This document shows, piece by piece, positions 852 to 62,666 of a DNA stretch of 64,000 nucleotides (the stretch's first letter is position 1; every line of letters starts with the position of its first letter). The stretch is from contig CAZAXH010000001.1 of assembly GCA_964489065.1 (NCBI GenBank), positions 238,592-302,591 on the forward strand, given 5' to 3'. The DNA is from an uncultured Planctomycetales bacterium. Lineage in GTDB: Bacteria; Omnitrophota; Gorgyraeia; Zapsychrales; JANLHA01. Under the pieces are notes generated by a model. It was not told the origin of the DNA and made no database searches. It was given only the letters and a program-made list of their open reading frames with translations. A program made the translations under genes and the position numbers.

Positions 852-1020
852 GAATCAAAGGTATAAACCCCAAAGCAAGCTCTGAATTCAAATAACCGCA
901 GCAAGCTGCGGAGTATTAAACCAAGATCCTTCGACTCGTTCGCTTCGCTCACTCGCTGCAGGATCAATTCGCATTTCTCGTTTACACTCCCTTAGGTCGT
1001 GTAAACTAAATGCTCATTGA
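852..1020. repeat. Copy 1 of a ~170-bp structured noncoding element; inverted orientation relative to copy 2 at 61247-61417
   Basis: The reverse complement aligns with 61247-61417 at roughly 87% identity, with a 1-nt indel. Internal hairpins include GTTTACAC...GTGTAAAC, GATCCT...AGGATC, CCGCAG-CTTG-CTGCGG and CAGAGC-TT-GCTTTG. One stem difference is a G-U wobble. Confidence 0.7.
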
Positions 1021-1057
1021 ATAAACTTGCGAACACGGCCGGCCCGGCCTATCCTTT

Positions 1058-2507: not shown

Positions 2508-3173
2508 TTAAAAAGCAGGACTAGAATTCCCGGTAAAAACACGAAGACAATGCCGCCGGAAAAGCTGCTTAACGATCCGCATATCTACGGCGGCTCCTTG
2601 TAACTGCTGGACCGATGTCATCTGCACATCCAGTCCACAGGGTTTAATCAAATTAAAAAACGGAAGATCGGTATTAATATTAATGGCTAGGCCGTGAAAG
2701 GTCACCCAGTGTTTGACTCCAACTCCAATCGAGACGATTTTTTTCGACCCAACCCAAACTCCGGTTCTGCCCGGGAATCTACAAGTCAATATATCAAAAT
2801 CCGTCAATAAATCAATGGCAACTTGCTCTAATTTATCCAAATACCACCTTAAATCACAACGATAATTCTTCAAATTGAAGACAGGATATGCCACAAGCTG
2901 CCCCGGAGCGTGCAAAGTCACGTCTCCTCCGCGATCAACCGCGATGACATCAATCCCCTGTTGTTCCAGGACAGGAGAAGCTGTCAATATATGGCGGCTG
3001 TCCGCCAGCCGCCCCAACGTAATCACCGCAGGATGTTCGCACATAAACAAGTACGGGCCGTGTCCGGCTAGGACCTCCTGCACAGCTGTTTTCTGGCGAG
3101 CATAGGCTTCATTATAGTTAATGATGTTCCAGTCTTCAACAGTCCACTGTTGGTCAATGTCATGTGACGTCAT
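2508..3173 (-). CDS. lipB: Octanoyl-[ACP]:protein N-octanoyltransferase LipB
   Basis: DRGGDVTLHAPGQLVAYP, KIVSIGVGV and PCGL motifs. The start is placed at the internal Met (MTSHDIDQQW), which has a GGAAGGA RBS. The ORF track extends to 3257. Confidence 0.8.
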   Translation of the reverse strand: MTSHDIDQQWTVEDWNIINYNEAYARQKTAVQEVLAGHGPYLFMCEHPAVITLGRLADSRHILTASPVLEQQGIDVIAVDRGGDVTLHAPGQLVAYPVFNLKNYRCDLRWYLDKLEQVAIDLLTDFDILTCRFPGRTGVWVGSKKIVSIGVGVKHWVTFHGLAININTDLPFFNLIKPCGLDVQMTSVQQLQGAAVDMRIVKQLFRRHCLRVFTGNSSPAF

Positions 3174-3273
3174 AATATCCTTCCCCCCAAGGGAAAACGC
3201 CTCATTAAAAACCAGGGGGTTAATTCGCACGTCTGACTTATGTCGCTGTCGCTCCATAAGTCAAGTGCTCATT

Positions 3274-3308
3274 AAAAAACCCCGTGCCGGAAAAAATCCT
3301 GGCCGGGG
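3274..3308 (-). terminator. Rho-independent terminator downstream of the IDH-family gene
   Basis: On the minus strand: CCCCGGCCAGG-AUUUUUU-CCGGCACGGGG followed by UUUUUUAAUG. Confidence 0.6.
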
Positions 3309-3342: not shown

Positions 3343-4425
3343 TTAACGCAGTCTCTGGCAGATCGCATCCGCCATTTCCTGGGTGCCCACCGCAGAAGGA
3401 TCGTCCCGCTGGGCCTTTAAATCGTATGTAACTGATTTCCCTTCCCGCAGGACATCCTGAACCGCCTGTTCCAAACGCTCCGCCTCTCGCGTCTTATTCA
3501 AATAACGCAACATCATAACCGCGGACAAAATCGTGGCCGTAGGATTGACTTTATTTTTTCCGGCATATTTAGGCGCGGATCCATGCACGGGCTCAAAAAG
3601 GGCCGCATTCTCCCCGATATTGGCTCCGGGCGCAATCCCCAGCCCGCCGACCAGGCCAGCGCATAAATCAGAAACAATATCCCCATACAGATTGGGAAGG
3701 ACAAGGACATCGTACAAATCCGGTTTCTGAACCAGCTGCATGCACATATTGTCCACAATCACATCCTGGAATTCAACTCTCCCCTCATATTCTTTAGCCA
3801 CGTCACGGGCGACCCGCAAAAAAAGCCCGTCGGTGTATTTCATAATATTGGCCTTATGGACAGCGCTGACTTTTTTCCTATTATTCTTAACGGCGTAATC
3901 AAAAGCGGCTTTCACGATACGCCGGGAACAGGTGACCGATATGGGTTTTATGGAGATCGCAGAATCCGCCCGGATCGGTTTAGGCTGCATCCGGTTGATT
4001 TCTTCGATCAAATGCGCGACCTCCTGGCTGCCCTGTTCAAATTCGATCCCCGCATAAAGATCCTCGGTGTTTTCCCTAAATATGACCAGATCAACGTCCC
4101 GGTTAACCGCTTTCGTCCCTTCATAATATTTATTCGGGCGGACACAGGCGAACAAATCCAAAACCTGGCGCAACTGGACGTTCACGGAACGAAAGCCTGA
4201 TCCCACAGGAGTCACGATCGGCCCTTTGATGGCAACTTTATTCCGGCGGACAGACTCAACCGCCTCCTCAGGCAAAGGCGTGCCAAACTGCTTGATGGCA
4301 TACTCCCCGACCGGATGTTCCTCCCATTCAATTTCCACTCCGGTGGCCTCGACGCATTTTTTCATGGCCAAGGACACTTCCGGGCCGATGCCGTCCCCCG
4401 GCAATAATGTAACACGAATAGACAT
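3343..4425 (-). CDS. Isocitrate/homoisocitrate dehydrogenase family protein (NAD-dependent IDH-like)
   Basis: 360 aa. NLYGDIVSDLCAGLVGGLGIAPGANIG matches IDH/HICDH rather than LeuB. Confidence 0.75.
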   Translation of the reverse strand: MSIRVTLLPGDGIGPEVSLAMKKCVEATGVEIEWEEHPVGEYAIKQFGTPLPEEAVESVRRNKVAIKGPIVTPVGSGFRSVNVQLRQVLDLFACVRPNKYYEGTKAVNRDVDLVIFRENTEDLYAGIEFEQGSQEVAHLIEEINRMQPKPIRADSAISIKPISVTCSRRIVKAAFDYAVKNNRKKVSAVHKANIMKYTDGLFLRVARDVAKEYEGRVEFQDVIVDNMCMQLVQKPDLYDVLVLPNLYGDIVSDLCAGLVGGLGIAPGANIGENAALFEPVHGSAPKYAGKNKVNPTATILSAVMMLRYLNKTREAERLEQAVQDVLREGKSVTYDLKAQRDDPSAVGTQEMADAICQRLR

Positions 4426-4442: not shown

Positions 4443-5504
4443 CTACATAGATTTATCCAACAACTGCGCAAATTCTTCCTTATTCTTGACATAAACCATG
4501 GCTGTTTCGTATGTAATCACGCCGTCCTGATACAACCGCTGCAGGGATTTGTCCATCGTATGCATCCCATAGGCGCTTCCGGTTTGGATCGCCGTGGGAA
4601 GCTGTTCGATAGCTTGCTCCCTAATCAGATTCCTCACGCCGGGCGTCGCGATCATGATTTCCGTCGCGAGAACCCGCCCCTGGCCGTCCGCACGCGGCAA
4701 AAGAATCTGGGAGGCCACCCCCTGCAAAGCGGAGGACAGCTGCAATTTGACCTGCTGTTGCTGATGAGGAGGGAACGCGTCGATAATACGTTCTATCGTC
4801 TGCGGCGCGTCCGGGGTGTGCAGTGTCGCCAGAACCAAATGGCCTGTTTCAGCCGCCGTCAAGGCTGTCGAAATAGTTTCGAGATCGCGCATTTCTCCGA
4901 CAACAATAACGTCGGGGTCCTGCCGGAGACAACGCTTAAGGGCTTCCGCGAAGCAATTGGTGTCCCGGTACACTTCCCTCTGTTTAATAATCGATTTTTT
5001 GTTGAAATGCACATATTCGATCGGGTCCTCAATCATAATCACGAGGTTTTCCCGTTCTTCATTAATGAGGTTGATCATCGAGGCCAATGTGGTTGTTTTT
5101 CCTGTCCCCGTCGGGCCAGTAATCAGGACCAGCCCGTTTGGTCTCCGCGCCAGGTCCACGATGACCGGCGGTAATCCAAGTTCCTCCATATTAGGGATAA
5201 AAATAGGGATTCGCCGGAACGCCGCTTCAGCGGCGCCGCGCTGCAAATGGACATTAACGCGAAAGCGATCCATCCCGGAAAGCGCCAGGGAAAAATCTAA
5301 TTCCCGGTCCCGCTCAAAGATTTCCTTTTGGCTATCCGTCAGGATACTGTAAATCATCTTTTTCAGTTCATCCCGGGACAGAGGATTCTTATTCGTCAAG
5401 ACCAATTTGCCATCAATCCTTAAAACAGGCGGCGTGTCATACGTCAAGTGAAGGTCCGAAGCCCTCTTTTCTATTGTTAAAAGAAGAAGATCTCTTAACT
5501 CCAT
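4443..5504 (-). CDS. pilT: Type IV pilus retraction ATPase PilT
   Basis: 353 aa. Walker A GPTGTGKTTT, typical PilT N-terminus (LHLTYDTPPVLRIDGKL), and the AIRNLIRE-like motif GVRNLIREQ. Confidence 0.85.
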   Translation of the reverse strand: MELRDLLLLTIEKRASDLHLTYDTPPVLRIDGKLVLTNKNPLSRDELKKMIYSILTDSQKEIFERDRELDFSLALSGMDRFRVNVHLQRGAAEAAFRRIPIFIPNMEELGLPPVIVDLARRPNGLVLITGPTGTGKTTTLASMINLINEERENLVIMIEDPIEYVHFNKKSIIKQREVYRDTNCFAEALKRCLRQDPDVIVVGEMRDLETISTALTAAETGHLVLATLHTPDAPQTIERIIDAFPPHQQQQVKLQLSSALQGVASQILLPRADGQGRVLATEIMIATPGVRNLIREQAIEQLPTAIQTGSAYGMHTMDKSLQRLYQDGVITYETAMVYVKNKEEFAQLLDKSM

Positions 5505-36930: not shown

Positions 36931-37004
36931 TTTTTAATAACAGGCCTGGTAGGATTCGAACCTACAACACACGGTTTTGGAGACCGTTGCTCTGCCAGTT
37001 GGAG
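36931..37004 (-). tRNA. tRNA-Trp (anticodon CCA); 3' CCA not encoded
   Basis: Cloverleaf drawn by hand: acceptor AGGCCUG/CAGGCCU, D stem GCUC/GAGC, anticodon loop CU-CCA-AA, T loop TTCGAAT. Confidence 0.85.
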
Positions 37005-37069
37005 CTACAGGCCTATTTTACCCCGTGTCTGAAAAGGGTTCAGCGTACACCGCCTGATGTAAAATAAAA

Positions 37070-53970: not shown

Positions 53971-54150
53971 AAAAAAAAATCTGTCCTTCTTCAAGAGGGA
54001 CAGATCACTATTTATGCCTATATCTTTCCTGATGGCAACTGGCTGCCCTCTTTCGGCCGGAACTCCGCCTCCTGTAGGGCCCTATAGCTTTGTGTCCCAT
54101 CCTTACGAATGGTTTACCTTTTGCATCACCTGATTGTCAAGTCTACTGAA
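53971..54150 (-). ncRNA. Candidate ~170-nt small RNA transcription unit with a promoter and intrinsic terminator but no ORF
   Basis: A TTGACA-18-TATACT promoter at 54151-54180 drives ~170 nt of noncoding sequence. It ends in the hairpin UCUGUCC-11 nt-GGACAGA followed by U9 (53971-54004). Confidence 0.35.
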
Positions 54151-57225: not shown

Positions 57226-58935
57226 TCAATCATTGGATGTGATCCTCAAAACTTCATCGAGCGTCGTCTCTCCGTCACACAATTTCTGCAGGCCGTCTTC
57301 CCAAAGCGTCAGCATGCCGAGTTTTTTACGGGCATATTCCTTTATTTCGTCGGAAGACTTTCCCAGAATCAGCATCTCGCGGACATGATCATCAAGCGGC
57401 ATCATTTCCGTGACCCCCAATCTCCCGTGAAAACCGGTGTGCCGGCAGGAATCGCATCCCTTTCCATGATAAAAAACCCGGTCCTTCTTGACAGGGATGC
57501 CCAACTCCCTTAAGACTTTATCCGGGATGTCCATCACCTCCTTGCAACGGGGGCAAATTCTCCGGCACAATCGCTGTGCACAGACCAGCACCAGGCTGGA
57601 TGACACCAGGAAAGGCTCCACTCCCATATCCACCAGGCGAGTCAGCGCTCCGGCCGCATCATTCGTATGCAGCGTTGAATAGACCATCTGCCCCGTTAAA
57701 GACGCCTTGATGGCGATATCTGCGGTTTCGTAATCACGGATCTCCCCCACCATCACAATATCCGGACTCTGCCGGAGAATCGCTTTTAACCCTTCGGCGA
57801 ACGTCAGCCCGATATCCGGCTTCACCTGAATCTGCGTCAAGCCATCCACGACATATTCAACCGGGTCTTCAATCGTAATAATATTTTTATCCACCTTATT
57901 CAATTCATTAATAATCGAATACAGGGTCGTGGATTTACCGCTTCCGGTCGGCCCGGTCACCAGGATCATCCCGAACGGCTGGGCGATCGCGTCCTGAAGC
58001 TTAAGCACCGACGCCCCGGAGAACCCAAGCCCGTCCAAACCGATGCGGAGGTTTTTCTTGTCCAGAACCCGCAGGACTATTTTCTGCCCGAAACTCGTCG
58101 GCAGAAGAGAAACACGGAAATCCACCTCTTGGTTGTTGACCCGCATCTTAAAACGGCCGTCCTGGGGCACCTGGGTGGCCGTGATATCCAGCCGGGACAT
58201 AATTTTGATACGGACAATAATGGCATTTTGGTTTTCCTTAGGGATTTTCATCGCGTGAACCAACGTCCCGTCAATCCGGTAACGGACACGCACGCAGTCC
58301 AGCATGGGTTCAACATGAATATCCGAGGCGCGCTGCTTGATCGCTTCACGGATGGCCAGGTTCACCAGGCGGATGATCGGCGCCTGCTCCCCCTCATCCG
58401 CCATCATCTCCGAATCAGTGACCAGCTCGCTGTCACTGATAATTTCCAGCTCTCCCACATCGATATCTTTACTGACGTCCTGAACCGAGTTGGAAATCTT
58501 GCTGCCGTAATAGGTTTCAAGCGCATGCAGGATGTCGGATTCCGTGCTCATCACGACGTCCACGTCCTTGCCTGTCAAATTCTTCAGATCATCAATCGCA
58601 AAAATATTCAGAGGGTCCGCCATCGCGATCGTCACAGTCTTCTGCATCTGGGATATCGGGAGGATCCGGTATTGGCGGGCCACCCTTTCGGGAATCGCGT
58701 CTTTTAAAGAAGGATCGATTTTGTATTTTTTAAGATTAATAAACGGGATATGCAATTCCCGGACCAGCAAAACCATCAGGTCCTCTTCTTTGATCAGCCC
58801 CTTTTCGATCAGGGCCCGGTCCAGGCTGATATTTTTGCTCTTCTGCAATTCTATCGCTTCATCCAGATCCTCTTTTTTGATTTTGAGGCTCTCAACAAGC
58901 GTTTGAATAATTTTTGTCTTGAGTGGTTGTGACAT
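57226..58935 (-). CDS. pilB: Type IV pilus assembly ATPase PilB/GspE family (paralog 2)
   Basis: 569 aa. T2SSE_N domain, Walker A GPTGSGKSTT, and tetracysteine CPRCK...CDSC. Confidence 0.85.
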   Translation of the reverse strand: MSQPLKTKIIQTLVESLKIKKEDLDEAIELQKSKNISLDRALIEKGLIKEEDLMVLLVRELHIPFINLKKYKIDPSLKDAIPERVARQYRILPISQMQKTVTIAMADPLNIFAIDDLKNLTGKDVDVVMSTESDILHALETYYGSKISNSVQDVSKDIDVGELEIISDSELVTDSEMMADEGEQAPIIRLVNLAIREAIKQRASDIHVEPMLDCVRVRYRIDGTLVHAMKIPKENQNAIIVRIKIMSRLDITATQVPQDGRFKMRVNNQEVDFRVSLLPTSFGQKIVLRVLDKKNLRIGLDGLGFSGASVLKLQDAIAQPFGMILVTGPTGSGKSTTLYSIINELNKVDKNIITIEDPVEYVVDGLTQIQVKPDIGLTFAEGLKAILRQSPDIVMVGEIRDYETADIAIKASLTGQMVYSTLHTNDAAGALTRLVDMGVEPFLVSSSLVLVCAQRLCRRICPRCKEVMDIPDKVLRELGIPVKKDRVFYHGKGCDSCRHTGFHGRLGVTEMMPLDDHVREMLILGKSSDEIKEYARKKLGMLTLWEDGLQKLCDGETTLDEVLRITSND

Positions 58936-58959: not shown

Positions 58960-60726
58960 TCAGTCCGGGGTTTCAGCCGGAGTCTTCTCCAGGGGCTCGT
59001 CAGCCGCAGTGACGCGCAGGACCTCTTCCAGCGTCGTCAGGCCGGCCAGGGCTTTGGCCATGGCATCCTCCCGCATCGTGGTCATACCTTCCCGTCGCCC
59101 CATCATTTTAATCTGCAGTTCCCCGGCCCGCTGTAAAATGCCCTTACGGACCGGCGGCGTAAGGACCAGGATTTCCGAAATACCCACCCGCCCGCTGTAG
59201 CCGGTCTTCAGACAGTTCTTGCATCCTTGTCCGCGGGACAGCCTGATGTCCCCTTTCTTGCCCTGCGCCTTCAACCCCACTTTCTCCGCCATCTCCGGAG
59301 ACAGGACAAATTCTTCCTTGCATTTCGGGCAGATCCGCCGGAGAAGGCGCTGCCCCACGACCGCGATGACGGAGGAACAAATCAGAAACGGTTCCACCCC
59401 CATATTGACCATACGCACAATCGACCCCGCCGCCGTGGTCGTATGCAGGGAACTCACCACGAGATGCCCGGTCAACGCGGCTTTAACCGCAATATCCAGG
59501 GTTTCACTTTCCCGGATTTCTCCAATCATAATGACATCGGGGTCCTGCCTCAAAATAGACCGCAGGGTTGAGGCAAACGTCAGGCCCACGCTGGGTTTCA
59601 CGTTCACCTGGTTCAGTCCCGCCATCTGGTACTCCACGGGATCCTCCACGGTCACAATATTTTTTCCCGGTGAGTCAATATACTTCAAAATCGAATACAG
59701 GGTCGTTGTCTTCCCGCTGCCCGTCGGGCCGCAGGACAGGATCATCCCGTGCGGCTTATCCGCGCATTCCTTCAGCCGGCGCAAAGCCTCCGGCTGAAAC
59801 CCAAGGTTATTGATGTCCACGGCCCCCGCGGATTTATCCAGAACGCGGAGCACGATCTTTTCCCCAAAAATCGTCGGGAGGACATTGACGCGAAAATCAA
59901 CCTCCTTGTTCCCGGACAGGATCGTCCGGAACCGCCCGTCCTGCGGAATGCGCCGCTCCGAGATATCCAAATTAGACACGACTTTCAGCCGGGAAATAAT
60001 CGCCAGGTGCAGGGCCTTGGACATCTGGTCAATTTCGCGGATGACCCCGTCCACCCGGTAACGGATGCGCAATGTTTTTTCCAGAGGCTCAATGAAAACG
60101 TCGCTGGCTTTCGCCATAACGGCCTGTTGGATGATGGTGTCCGTTAATTTGATCAAAGGGGCGTCCTGGGAAATATCCTCGACCGAAACTTTTTCCGAAT
60201 CCAGGTCCTGCTCTTTGACCAGCTCCAGTTCTTCGGCGTCCCGCATGTCCTTAATGATGCTTTCCAAAGTTTCTCCCGACTCCACCGGAGAACCCTGTGT
60301 GTAACAGCGCTCAATAGCATCCGCCAGTTGAGTCGAGCGGGCGATGATCGGCGTGATGCTTAACCCCGTCAATGCCTTCACATCATCGATAACAAAAATG
60401 TTCAAAGGATCAGCCATGGCGAGGGTCAGGTTCCCGCCCATTTTGGACACCGGCATGATTTGATATTTCTGCGCCACGTCCCGCGGGATCAGTTTCACGA
60501 CACTGGGATCGATTTTAAGCCGGGAAATATCTATCGGGGGGAGGCCCAATCCTTCGCTGAGGATATGGGTCAAATCATCTTCACTGATCAGGTTCATCCG
60601 GACCAGCACCTGGCTGAGGTCACCGCCAGAGTTCTTCTGTTCCAAGAGAGCCCTGTCCAAATCTTCCTGTTTGATAATATTATCTCTCAACAGGATTTGC
60701 TGTAACCGTTCTTTTAAGGAAAACAT
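58960..60726 (-). CDS. Type IV pilus assembly ATPase PilB/GspE family (paralog 1)
   Basis: 588 aa. T2SSE_N domain, Walker A GPTGSGKTTT, and tetracysteine CPKCK...CKNC. Confidence 0.85.
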   Translation of the reverse strand: MFSLKERLQQILLRDNIIKQEDLDRALLEQKNSGGDLSQVLVRMNLISEDDLTHILSEGLGLPPIDISRLKIDPSVVKLIPRDVAQKYQIMPVSKMGGNLTLAMADPLNIFVIDDVKALTGLSITPIIARSTQLADAIERCYTQGSPVESGETLESIIKDMRDAEELELVKEQDLDSEKVSVEDISQDAPLIKLTDTIIQQAVMAKASDVFIEPLEKTLRIRYRVDGVIREIDQMSKALHLAIISRLKVVSNLDISERRIPQDGRFRTILSGNKEVDFRVNVLPTIFGEKIVLRVLDKSAGAVDINNLGFQPEALRRLKECADKPHGMILSCGPTGSGKTTTLYSILKYIDSPGKNIVTVEDPVEYQMAGLNQVNVKPSVGLTFASTLRSILRQDPDVIMIGEIRESETLDIAVKAALTGHLVVSSLHTTTAAGSIVRMVNMGVEPFLICSSVIAVVGQRLLRRICPKCKEEFVLSPEMAEKVGLKAQGKKGDIRLSRGQGCKNCLKTGYSGRVGISEILVLTPPVRKGILQRAGELQIKMMGRREGMTTMREDAMAKALAGLTTLEEVLRVTAADEPLEKTPAETPD

Positions 60727-60734
60727 GACGTTCC

Positions 60735-61190
60735 TTAGGAGGTGGTGGTGCTGCGATATCTCTTAATCGCTTCTTTAATGTCGCTAGCCGTTGAAACAAA
60801 CGTCTGAACACTGCAGCCGGTCAGCATTTCAATATCTTCCACGGCGATACGATTCAGGGGATTCGCCATGGCGACCGTTAAACTTTTTCCGATCTTATCA
60901 ATGGGGATCAAACAGTATTTTTTGCAGACGCCTTCCGGAACCGCGTTGAGGACCTCCTGATCAATCTCATAATTCGACAAAGGAAGGAAAGGGAATCCAT
61001 ACTGACAGGTGAGGGCCTGGGCGATATCTTCCTCCGTGGCGAACTTCAGCTCGACCAGAATTTCGCCGATAAGCCCGCCTTTTTCGTTTTGATAGGCCAT
61101 GGCCATGGCGACTTGCTCCCGGTCAATAACGCCTTTCTCAACGAGCAGTTCCCCCAAATGTTTATTGGATGTGCGTTTGTAATCTTTCAT
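60735..61190 (-). CDS. Stand-alone T2SSE_N / MshEN-like domain protein (151 aa)
   Basis: KHLGELLVEKGVIDREQVAMAMAYQ fits the RLGxxLLxxGLLxxxxLxxxLxxQ-type motif, with G and Q conserved. The rest resembles the N1 domain of GspE/PilB (IPIDKIGKSLTVAMANPLN). Confidence 0.6.
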   Translation of the reverse strand: MKDYKRTSNKHLGELLVEKGVIDREQVAMAMAYQNEKGGLIGEILVELKFATEEDIAQALTCQYGFPFLPLSNYEIDQEVLNAVPEGVCKKYCLIPIDKIGKSLTVAMANPLNRIAVEDIEMLTGCSVQTFVSTASDIKEAIKRYRSTTTS

Positions 61191-61246
61191 ATGTCAGGGT
61201 ATACACCCTCTTTATGATCTTATCTTAAACAAAAATTGCCCTTGAC

Positions 61247-61417
61247 TCAATGAACATTTAGTTTACACAACCCAAGAGAGCGTAAACTAGAAATGCAAAT
61301 TGATCCTCCAGCGCGAGTGAGCCAGGAGAACGAGTCGAAGGATCTTGATTTACTATCCCGCAGCTTGCTGCGGTTAATTGAGTCCAGAGCTTGCTCTGGG
61401 GTTTATATCTTTGATTC
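61247..61417. repeat. Copy 2 of the ~170-bp structured noncoding element (opposite orientation to copy 1)
   Basis: See the copy at 852-1020. It lies between the rodA stop and the MshEN-like gene start. A TTGACT hexamer sits at its upstream edge and an extra hairpin GGCAAAA-AGAA-TTTTGCC sits downstream. Confidence 0.7.
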
Positions 61418-61559
61418 CATTCCCGGGCAAAAAGAATTTTGCCTATTATACAACATATTATCATTCTTATATATAATTTATAAAGAATTGTTTTTAAAAG
61501 CACGTCCCGGGACCGAAGACAGAACCCAAGGGTTGCCGGGCCTTTACAAGGACCCGGGA

Positions 61560-62666
61560 TTAGAAAATCGTGTGCCTCTTGCTTAAATTCAGCAAAACGC
61601 CGATCATAAATAATGAAACCATAAAAGACGTTCGTCCATAACTCACCAAAGGCAGCGTAATCCCCACCACCGGACACATCCCCAGCACCATGCCGATGTT
61701 AATCAAGACCTGTAAAGAGAAAATAACGATCATCCCCACCGCAATCTGCATACCGAAGCGGTCTTTCACTTGTTCTGCCACTTTCAGCCCCGCGTAAATC
61801 ACGACGCCATAACACAGCAAAAAAATCAGCGTCCCCAACAACCCCCACTCTTCTCCAATAACGGAAAAAATAAAATCCGTGTGCCGTTCCGGCAAAAAGT
61901 TCAGCTGATTCTGCGTTCCTGACAGCCATCCTTTCCCCCACAGCCGGCCCGACCCCACCGCAATTTTAGATTGAATAATCGTATAACCGGCCCCTAACGG
62001 ATCAATATTGGGATTCAGGAAAACCAGCAGCCGGTCTTTCTGGTACGGCTTGATAACATGCCAGCCGAACGGCATCAGAACAAGACAAATCATGAGGAAG
62101 CCCAGGATATACCGGTAACGCAGCCCGCTGGCAAACAGCATAAAAATAAAGATCCCGAAAAACAACAAAGACGTTCCCAGGTCGGGTTGCTTGAAAACAA
62201 GCAGCATCGGGACGAGAGTTATCAAAAGAGGCACAACCAGGTCGCGCCACAGCACCCCCACGGGACTGCGGGCCCGGGCAGAAAAAGAGGAACGCCGGTC
62301 GCTGAAATACCGGCCCAACCCGAAGATCAAACTCACTTTCGCCAGTTCCGAAGGCTGGAAGCTGATCCCGGCAATCGAAAACCATCGCTGGGCCCCCAAA
62401 GCGTGCCGGCCGGCGACCAGGACCAGGATCAGCAAGATCACGCTTCCCCCGTAAATAAAATAAGCCATATCATAAAATTTTCTGTAATCCACATGACTCA
62501 GATAAAGCAGCATAAAAAGGCCGAGCACCGAAAAAACAACCTGGTCATAGAAGACTTTGTGGGAAACCCGCACGTTCTGATAAGACGCGCTATACAAAGC
62601 TATCAGGCCAAACGCTATCACCGCGAAGGTAAAAATAAAAATCACCACCCCTATATCTCGGCGCAT
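61560..62666 (-). CDS. rodA: SEDS-family peptidoglycan glycosyltransferase RodA/FtsW (RodA by linkage to PBP2)
   Basis: 368 aa, 10 TM helices, adjacent to mrdA. Confidence 0.85.
   Translation of the reverse strand: MRRDIGVVIFIFTFAVIAFGLIALYSASYQNVRVSHKVFYDQVVFSVLGLFMLLYLSHVDYRKFYDMAYFIYGGSVILLILVLVAGRHALGAQRWFSIAGISFQPSELAKVSLIFGLGRYFSDRRSSFSARARSPVGVLWRDLVVPLLITLVPMLLVFKQPDLGTSLLFFGIFIFMLFASGLRYRYILGFLMICLVLMPFGWHVIKPYQKDRLLVFLNPNIDPLGAGYTIIQSKIAVGSGRLWGKGWLSGTQNQLNFLPERHTDFIFSVIGEEWGLLGTLIFLLCYGVVIYAGLKVAEQVKDRFGMQIAVGMIVIFSLQVLINIGMVLGMCPVVGITLPLVSYGRTSFMVSLFMIGVLLNLSKRHTIF

Follow-up and report, generated by a model that had tools for sequence, protein, structure and literature searches.

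A putative composite intergenic repeat with a REP-class hairpin in a narrow lineage of Omnitrophota

Results

Two inverted copies in intergenic gaps

The window, by which we mean the whole 64-kb stretch of DNA that was analysed, carries two similar stretches of about 175 nt, both located in gaps between minus-strand genes. Copy A lies between an MGDG_synth (ugtP-like) gene with its stop codon at 1058 and a Lip_A_acyltrans (lpxL-like) gene with its start codon at 839, the latter position according to our own reading; it begins 13 nt upstream of this start codon and ends 31 nt from the MGDG_synth stop, on its downstream side. Copy B is situated between the stop of RodA at 61560 and the start, at 61190, of a stand-alone MshEN gene, which heads a pilB/type IV pilus operon. 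All four flanking genes are on the minus strand, and their Pfam labels agree with the pairs ugtP-like/lpxL-like and rodA/MshEN-like that the initial annotation, made from the sequence alone, had named for the two gaps. The following features are referred to:

852..1027, plus strand (canonical strand on plus): copy A, composite of about 175 nt, antisense to the flanking minus-strand genes
61245..61418, minus strand (canonical strand on minus): copy B, composite of about 175 nt, in the same sense as the flanking genes
61419..61490, minus strand: host promoter-like stretch (..TTGTATAATAGGCAAAATTCTTTTTGCCCGG), just upstream of copy B and outside the element

By blastn, 852-1020 (+) and 61417-61247 (-) share 87.1% identity over 171 nt (E = 5e-56), in line with the reverse-complement pair of about 87% identity described initially, and the indel between both copies has 2 nt (CG) instead of the 1 nt given there. 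Comparison of four full copies placed the borders at about 852-1027 for copy A and about 61245-61418 for copy B, with an element length of about 175 nt and the ends TCAATGAGCA.. and ..CTTTGATTC. In a listing of the repeats of the window, this pair was the sole long repeat without an origin in paralogous genes, and an 18-nt piece of the element occurs there exactly twice, compared with 0.03 occurrences expected by chance.

Hairpin anatomy of the element

Read on the strand that is plus at copy A, the element consists of an A/T-rich start, the hairpins H1 (CAGAGC-AA-GCTCTG) and H2 (CCGCAGC-AA-GCTGCGG), a central hairpin (GATCCTTCGACTCG...AGGATC) and, with about 20 pairs, the long interrupted hairpin H6-H5-H4, which terminates with ..GCTCATTGAATAAA. 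All hairpins proposed in the initial annotation, namely GTTTACAC/GTGTAAAC, GATCCT/AGGATC, CCGCAGC..GCTGCGG and CAGAGC..GCTYTG, were found again. For the long-hairpin module a covariance model, R1, was used, and its scores are given with the positions of the hairpins:

871..884, plus strand: H1 of copy A, CAAAGC-AA-GCTCTG, fully paired only on the reverse strand via a G-U pair
896..911, plus strand: H2 of copy A, CCGCAGC-AA-GCTGCGG; its reverse strand has a CUUG loop and a T-rich tail and is terminator-like
925..965, plus strand: central REP-like hairpin ("core") of copy A, GATCCTTCGACTCGTTCGCTTCGCTCACTCGCTGCAGGATC
957..1022, plus strand: long-hairpin module of copy A with H6, H5 and H4, about 20 pairs and an 11-nt loop; R1 86.5 bits
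61384..61399, minus strand: H1 of copy B; the plus strand reads CCAGAGCTTGCTCTGG then GGTTTATATCT and is terminator-like
61358..61373, minus strand: H2 of copy B
61302..61344, minus strand: central REP-like hairpin of copy B, 2 nt longer than that of copy A
61245..61310, minus strand: long-hairpin module of copy B; R1 84.6 bits

H1 and H2 differ only at compensated stem positions and look like duplicates of one GC hairpin. A long-range helix, ATTCAAT/ATTGAAT, displays two compensated pairs among the four full copies, its 5' arm being internal and not terminal.

Coding potential and known RNA families

The element was initially considered non-coding, which our searches bear out: overlapping open reading frames do exist, but a Pfam search of the two yielded no family, and a profile of the equivalent open frame in copies A and B and in locus L001, a relative described below, retrieved no homologue from 5.8 billion predicted proteins. 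A comparison with Rfam, likewise suggested in the initial annotation, matched no known family. Rfam 15 run over the whole window at gathering thresholds revealed only two tRNAs and a c-di-GMP-I riboswitch, permissive scans of copies A and B gave only chance-level matches (best E = 0.93, far below any threshold), and scans of the related loci returned no relevant match. Blastn against plasmid and phage collections gave no real match to the element, and a literature search with its sequence strings retrieved unrelated primers only.

Each copy could nevertheless be a transcription unit of its own, encoding a structured, trans-acting RNA of about 170 nt, and as no known family was matched, such a small RNA family would be new. 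Consistent with this, folding of both strands of each copy gave lower energies than shuffled sequences in three of four cases (z = -3.0 to -3.5), the plus strand of copy B reaching z = -1.8, and the reverse strand ends in two CUUG-tetraloop hairpins and a U-rich tail resembling an intrinsic terminator. Against it, a simple consensus scan detected no promoter-like site within the element, nor was one seen at a fixed distance from it, and the distribution, the rate of change and the strand features presented in the following sections also render a small RNA gene family improbable.

Some further candidates were tried and rejected. Class C group II introns insert after terminators, for which reason an intron remnant was considered; Rfam gave no intron match, and both a GUGYG 5' end and a domain V-like hairpin are missing. 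An integron attC site would carry RYYYAAC and GTTRRRY boxes, which are absent, and for a retron, bridge RNA or omega RNA neither a nearby reverse transcriptase, IS110, TnpB or IscB gene nor an Rfam match was found.

Further copies and empty sites in relatives

Public genomes and metagenomes were scanned with conserved strings of the element to find further copies. Orthologues of copy B were detected in the MAG JAGOJP01 (L001) and in the activated-sludge assembly UPTA01 (L005), the relative carrying the orthologue being 95.8% identical to the window over 6.1 kb. A third full copy, also from the UPTA01 assembly (L004), is 85% identical to copy A and 83.5% to copy B, and its flanks are unrelated to the window, with a decayed PAS/HTH gene on one side and a Rex repressor gene (downstream) on the other. 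In total, three full-length loci are known, of which A and L004 are antisense and B is sense with respect to the host genes.

Only two full copies are present in the window and they are inverted to each other, as might be expected of a remnant of a local inverted segmental duplication or of recombination, or of an assembly artefact. We consider all of these very improbable: the third locus, L004, lies in a relative amid unrelated flanks, the aligned copies A and B lose their similarity abruptly at the element borders, and both are reproduced in independent assemblies, the element having been recovered from L001, L005, L006 and L007. An inversion between the two copies was rejected as well, since the genes at both sites have the order and strand seen in the relatives, so that no inversion occurred.

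Empty sites were sought in the neighbourhoods of homologues of the flanking proteins. At site B, four independent assemblies (L008-L011) of a species about 82% identical to the window display a spacer of 55 nt with gene order intact, compared with 224 nt in the window, and the alignment to the window halts at 61423 and picks up at 61198. In three more distant lineages (L012/13, L014-16 and L017) the rodA-MshEN spacers measure only 110-134 nt. Site A is empty in L018, L019, L020, L141 and L142, in which the spacers between MGDG_synth and lpxL have 32-131 nt compared with 218 nt in the window; here, the alignments halt at 1080/1087 and pick up at 841/846. Since these relatives keep the flanking genes and the respective site is empty in them, both copies are insertions that took place after the split from the nearest sampled sister species, which is about 82% identical. 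The loci also show that the composite was copied as a whole into at least three intergenic sites, i.e. A, B and the site upstream of Rex in L004. The flanks are different at every locus, and presence or absence varies between close species, both of which speak against a small RNA gene family.

The core of the promoter-like stretch next to copy B is identical in the empty-site species of L008-L011, which assigns this stretch to the host operon. Copy B was inserted between it and the start of the MshEN/pilB operon and therefore probably lies within the 5' leader of the latter. This position would suit another explanation, namely that the element has been exapted as a cis-acting RNA, boosting terminators or stabilising 3' ends after genes and, at copy B, tuning the MshEN/pilB operon from its 5' leader. 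Two observations argue against this explanation, which we regard as unlikely and to which we return with the long hairpin: every other species examined lacks the element at sites A and B, meaning that the host genes function in its absence, and different loci transcribe opposite strands of it.

As for a possible way of insertion, the terminal ends GAATCAAAG and CATTGAATA match each other in inverted orientation at only 6/9 bases, and terminal inverted repeats are thus lacking. No direct repeat is common to the flanks of A, B, L001 and L004, with the junctions not fixed to the base, the empty-site species being 18% diverged. The fetched loci contained no gene with the Pfam label of a Y1 or any other transposase, nor did we encounter an autonomous parent element.

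Divergence of the inserted copies

Between the window and L001, the orthologues of copy B are identical at 153/174 positions (87.9%), i.e. about 12% diverged. The four-fold degenerate sites of the four flanking genes are identical at 646/708 positions (91.2%; 8.8% diverged) and the promoter-like stretch upstream of copy B at 70/72 (97.2%). In addition, L001 and L004 have lost pairs in H1, H2, H4 and H5 without compensation. As the element changes about as fast as four-fold sites and stem pairs are broken, it resembles a repeat drifting after its insertion, unlike a constrained RNA gene, and the inserted copies drift at about the neutral rate. Such a rate, with its accumulating stem-breaking changes, counts against a small RNA gene, and it also counts against a cis-acting function of the full copy. 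On the other side stand the compensation in the ATTCAAT/ATTGAAT helix and the derived changes in copy B, which are all structure-neutral on the transcribed strand, where they form G-U pairs. In addition, the conservation of a solo module (see below) suggests that some modules may be under host-level selection.

The long-hairpin module

A profile built from the four full copies weakly matched L020, and a related element was then read in the Iso_dh/LplA spacer of both L019 and L020. Its 3' module carries GCACTT/AAGTGC where the full copies have GCATTT/AAATGC, and GATTTATG/CATAAATC where they have GTTTACAC/GTGTAAAC, with complementarity kept. An alignment of six sequences comprises 20 pairs with 92.5% paired cells, and six pairs (also described as six stems) are changed on both sides. 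None of 500 shuffles attained the covariation score of the alignment (0/500), and sliding the partners by 1-3 columns left 24-42% paired cells and 0-2 compensated pairs. All six double changes map to the single branch between the two subfamilies, and since either strand pairs by Watson-Crick rules, they give no information on the strand and would suit a hairpin of DNA just as well as one of RNA. The initial annotation had taken a G-U wobble in a stem as fitting selection on RNA structure and had proposed to look for covariation; a single wobble is weak evidence for such selection, but real covariation emerges only from a comparison of the 3' module with the divergent subfamily of the sister species, and the 3' hairpin has been kept via compensated changes during the history of the family.

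With R1, a third and partial copy was found in the window. The initial annotation had reported two copies, which holds for the full ones, and had overlooked this one:

3215..3277, plus strand: solo long-hairpin module in the Iso_dh/LplA spacer; R1 52.8 bits, E ~1e-10

The solo module is orthologous to the copies of the sister species L019 and L020 and, on the gene-sense strand, directly follows the U-tract of the Iso_dh terminator. A divergent copy of the module is present in L014 (R1 36 bits). The module hence occurs alone or recombined, at 3215-3277 of the window, in L019, in L020 (tandem partial units) and in L014. R1 found no match over about 0.78 Mb of IMG/VR loci and, with filters off, none over 87 kb from more distant Omnitrophota, and the module seems to be confined to a narrow clade of this phylum. 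As a side observation, the LplA start at 3257 is an over-extended ORF call caused by such an element.

In a comparison of the window with L019/L020, the solo module and the Iso_dh terminator together reach about 93% identity, with one compensated change from T-A to C-G in the module. Compared with genomes at about 82% and with the site A spacers, which are unalignable, the solo copy looks constrained. These findings speak for a cis-acting RNA, as do the six compensated pairs of the 3' module, its start at a terminator U-tract in the window solo copy, L019, L020 and L014, and the terminator-like hairpins carried by the reverse strand. Against it, the full copies evolve at the rate of four-fold sites and lose stem pairs in L001 and L004.

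The central hairpin and a nested insertion

Outside the clade, relatives exist only for the central hairpin of the element, which matches two units of L003, a MAG labelled Lachnospiraceae, at 42/43 and 39/42 bases, and one unit of L002 (Ca. Aadella gelida) at 43/50 bases; these units bear the end sequence GTGTCAT.. and form inverted pairs. At the position of this tag the window copies read AATTG-ATCCT.., compared with GTGTC-ATCCT.. in L002 and L003, and ATTG is found in all four full copies. Members of the CGTC-tagged REP superfamily carry a CGTC or TGTC tag and a stem opening with A-T, T-A; they are mostly head-to-head dimers, occur in several phyla, among them as dRS3 of Neisseria and RPE-4/RPE-6 of Rickettsia, and no dedicated transposase is known for them (Di Nocera et al. 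2013, PMC3733652). In the central stem, ATCCT/AGGAT, the first pairs are A-T and T-A, the stem opening of CGTC/TGTC REPs (PMC3733652), and on the tagged (reverse) strand a tandem G.A/A.G pair can be read in the stem. The central hairpin is therefore best regarded as derived from the cross-phylum CGTC/TGTC-tagged REP class, with the tag lost in the window copies. That the centre of the element is a REP-class repeat found across phyla is a further point against a small RNA gene.

A generic unit of this class, GTCATCCTGAGCG-N(3-30)-CGAAGGATC, occurs at least 172 times in at least 120 IMG/VR loci (1.14 Mb), with less than one match expected by chance according to our own rough estimate. Among the units listed, the preceding base is T in 86%, and inverted doublets are common. 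Viral contigs contain this generic unit only, with 0 matches to the 18-mer of the element itself. In the 64-kb window, no canonical REP units were found elsewhere with up to 2-3 mismatches, the two single embedded occurrences being the only ones.

In L019 and L020 a different hairpin, TGTC-ATGACTTAC...GTAAGTCAT-GG, is nested between the GC hairpin and the long hairpin, with an 8-nt direct repeat on either side of it that reads ATTAATTC in L020 and ATTCATTC in L019. Neither the second and third tandem units of L020 nor the solo copy of the window carry an insert at this junction. The GATCC..GGATC hairpin of the 175-nt element sits at this very junction, between the degenerate 8-mer copies ATTAAACC and ATCAATTC. 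The shared junction between copies of the 8-mer suggests that the 175-nt element is made up of the hairpin module, a nested REP-class hairpin and a duplicated GC hairpin. We thus read the element as a mosaic of a clade-specific long hairpin of 66 nt, a REP-class central hairpin and two short GC hairpins. The direct repeats flanking 142 distinct IMG/VR units are no longer than those of permuted controls, none of them reaching 8 nt, so that the 8-nt repeat of L019/L020 is local and not a general property of the REP class.

It is conceivable, though rather unlikely in our view, that the long-hairpin module is a new clade-specific structured element with a host role by terminators and, moreover, a preferred landing pad of CGTC/TGTC REPs at the ATTAATTC junction. 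The host role would follow from the 93% conservation and the compensated stems of the module at its orthologous site. If true, this would be a rare direct footprint of the movement of an "orphan" REP class for which no transposase is known.

Strand and orientation

Evidence on the strand is mixed. The canonical strand is supported at four stems by one-sided changes that keep a G-U pair; most of these lie in B and L001, in which this strand is transcribed. The reverse strand is favoured by H1 of copy A, two CUUG tetraloops, the tandem G.A pair and the terminator-like tails. Such contradictory signals are not in favour of a small RNA gene.

Terminator-like hairpins are found on the reverse strand only, and this strand runs with the host genes in 5/6 independent loci, a proportion that is not statistically significant. 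At the loci with the reverse strand in gene sense, the module begins at a T-tract behind a terminator or a terminator-like hairpin: the Iso_dh terminator in the window, L019 and L020, the terminator of a c-di-GMP-I riboswitch in L014, and short GC hairpins in A and L004. Copy B is the only locus in the other orientation, and there, no hairpin precedes a U-tract. From this pattern of six loci, which is not a test, we infer that insertion may be aimed at sites with a hairpin and a T-tract, and that insertions placing terminator-like hairpins inside a leader may be selected against.

Discussion

Taking these results together, we assign a probability of about 0.7 to the reading that both stretches represent one composite intergenic repeat of about 175 bp, which is non-coding and non-autonomous and is restricted to a narrow lineage of Omnitrophota. 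Of the two possibilities put forward initially, a new small RNA family or a miniature repeat, the miniature repeat stands in a broad sense, and the small RNA recedes in view of the empty sites, the occurrence in both orientations, the lack of an internal promoter and a rate of change like that of four-fold sites.

The composite would have been assembled from the hairpin module of the clade, a nested REP-class hairpin and a duplicated GC hairpin, and it was then copied whole to A, B and L004. Mobilisation might have been brought about in trans by an enzyme recognising hairpins in single-stranded DNA, of the REP/RAYT or IS200/IS605 type. Such an enzyme is suggested by the hairpins near both ends, the lack of terminal inverted repeats and of a visible target duplication, and the landing after a terminator-like hairpin and T-tract; as neither a transposase nor an autonomous parent was found in the fetched loci, this mechanism is entirely inferred. 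Once inserted, the copies would be passively co-transcribed with the host operons, with at most a mild effect as terminator or stabiliser. Their orientation would be filtered by selection, the strand with the CUUG hairpins being tolerated in gene sense only behind the terminator of the upstream gene.

Mosaic intergenic repeats are known as the BIMEs of E. coli, the NIMEs of Neisseria (RS units flanked by dRS3) and the pneumococcal BOX elements (boxA-boxB-boxC). With these, the element shares separable hairpin modules that also occur alone or recombined, its intergenic location and co-transcription in either orientation; it differs in that the module sequences are unrelated, the copy number seen is low and the whole composite was copied at three full-length loci. 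ERIC/IRU and Correia elements are MITE-like transcribed hairpin repeats forming one long hairpin via terminal inverted repeats and duplicating a TA target. They are similar in size (100-180 bp), intergenic, non-coding, variable in presence and able to add hairpins or terminators to transcripts, whereas the ends of the Omnitrophota element match at 6/9 bases only, there is no visible duplication and it has four separate hairpins. A classical MITE would be in agreement with about 175 non-coding nucleotides at three loci and with empty sites at A and B, but not with the absence of terminal inverted repeats; a target duplication was not visible in the flanks of A, B, L001 and L004.

PATEs are hairpin-ended elements derived from IS200/IS605 and moved by HUH Y1 transposases. 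REPINs are hairpin-ended as well and are also moved by HUH Y1 transposases (PMC3116915). Our element resembles both in its hairpins near both ends without terminal inverted repeats or a visible target duplication, in its insertion behind a hairpin and beside TTTAT or TTGAC, both short and rich in T, and in its long persistence and slow decay. Unlike a REPIN, which consists of two inverted REPs folding into one hairpin and goes with a RAYT gene in the genome, it has one REP-like unit per element and no doublet, with no RAYT, TnpA or TnpB at the examined loci, and unlike PATEs it has no known cognate autonomous element. The likeness to CGTC/TGTC REPs lies in the stem and loop sequence of the central hairpin, which matches the TGTC-tagged inverted-doublet units of L003 at 42/43 bases, in the occurrence across phyla and in the lack of a known dedicated transposase. 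The differences lie in the ATTG at the tag position of the window copies, in a loop of about 30 nt compared with 4-5 nt in published families, and in a hairpin that is single within the composite and no head-to-head dimer, with two occurrences in 64 kb. The element is hence a composite REP-containing intergenic repeat of the REP/BIME/NIME/BOX-like kind, standing outside any named family.

A literature search found no description of modular REP/BIME/NIME-like intergenic repeats for Omnitrophota, and the present copies document such repeats in an uncultivated phylum. They provide a clean pair of filled and empty sites and tie the core of the element to a cross-phylum CGTC/TGTC REP class that lacks a known mobilising enzyme. 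For this class, the nested REP with its 8-nt direct repeat and the landing after terminator U-tracts are small mechanistic clues. A false lead is also removed, since no conserved regulatory RNA of Omnitrophota is involved and the element should not seed a small RNA family. The clade-specific long hairpin with strong covariation and one conserved copy by a terminator, and the nested REP-class hairpin, are of interest to specialists. On the practical side, repeats of this kind break assemblies and produce over-extended ORF calls.

Hairpin modules at the Iso_dh/LplA spacer

The 3' long-hairpin module of the element also occurs by itself in the window, in the spacer between Iso_dh and LplA, and the corresponding spacer of the two sister species L019 and L020 holds a related modular element:

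Window 3215-3277, plus strand: solo 3' long-hairpin module, between Iso_dh and LplA
Window 3343-4425, minus strand: Iso_dh gene, one side of this spacer, with LplA on the other
L020 8690-8990, minus strand: related modular element
L019 8865-8990, minus strand: related modular element

Read on the gene strand, the solo module is directly preceded by the terminator U-tract of Iso_dh, and it is about 93% conserved in both sister species. Because ORF 2508..3257 crosses the module, the LplA start is probably over-called there; the true start looks to be the ATG near 3176 (MTSHDIDQQ..), which is preceded by GGAAGGA. The element of the sister species contains a 45-nt TGTC-tagged hairpin with an 8-nt direct repeat on both sides (ATTAATTC in L020, ATTCATTC in L019), and L020 carries two extra tandem partial units without this hairpin. 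The hairpin thus looks to have inserted into the element and duplicated its target.

The module was also found in the more distant relative L014, immediately 3' of the terminator of a c-di-GMP-I riboswitch that has a conserved counterpart in the window (58-59 bits for the two):

Window 54031-54128, minus strand: c-di-GMP-I riboswitch, upstream of a type IV pilin (N_methyl) gene in the pilus cluster
L014 17814-17908, plus strand: conserved c-di-GMP-I riboswitch

The pilus operon is headed by a stand-alone protein of MshEN, a c-di-GMP-binding domain.

Variation among the full copies

Alignment of copies A and B with those of L001 (orthologous to copy B) and L004 (upstream of a Rex gene) revealed within-genome sharing at four positions (A and B versus L001 and L004), while about eight positions track locus or subfamily (A and L004 versus B and L001); these site patterns hint that the copies exchanged sequence by gene conversion or came from two source subfamilies. 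Two independent Logan assemblies of the same organism, L006 (SRR15237810) and L007 (SRR21822500), with 99.96-100% identity to the window, both terminate at window position 997, within the H4 loop of copy A, and since they break at the same base, a further near-identical copy or a strain variant is hinted at there.

REP-class units outside the clade

Viral-labelled IMG/VR contigs are very rich in the 25-nt unit (T)GTCATCCTGAGCG-MAG-CGAAGGATC and in variants of it with longer loops (at least 172 units in at least 120 loci, L021-L140; maximum 8 per 14 kb). The units frequently form inverted doublets, and the longer loops look like small hairpins ending in ..AGT. At 1150-2850 of L003, a buffalo rumen MAG labelled Lachnospiraceae, BIME-like clusters of TGTC-tagged units flank a gene that is putatively argJ-like from its translation. 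By eye, this stretch is G+C-rich; if truly so, the bin assignment may be wrong, as such a composition would be unusual for Lachnospiraceae.

Other features of the window

A repeat search of the window returned direct repeats, which are not non-coding but reflect motifs conserved among three paralogous genes for T2SSE/PilB-type ATPases, and Rfam identified two tRNA genes 230 nt apart:

4876-5143, 57725-57980 and 59501-59756: direct repeats D1 and D2
36941-37014, minus strand: tRNA gene, 61 bits
37244-37316, minus strand: tRNA gene, 67 bits
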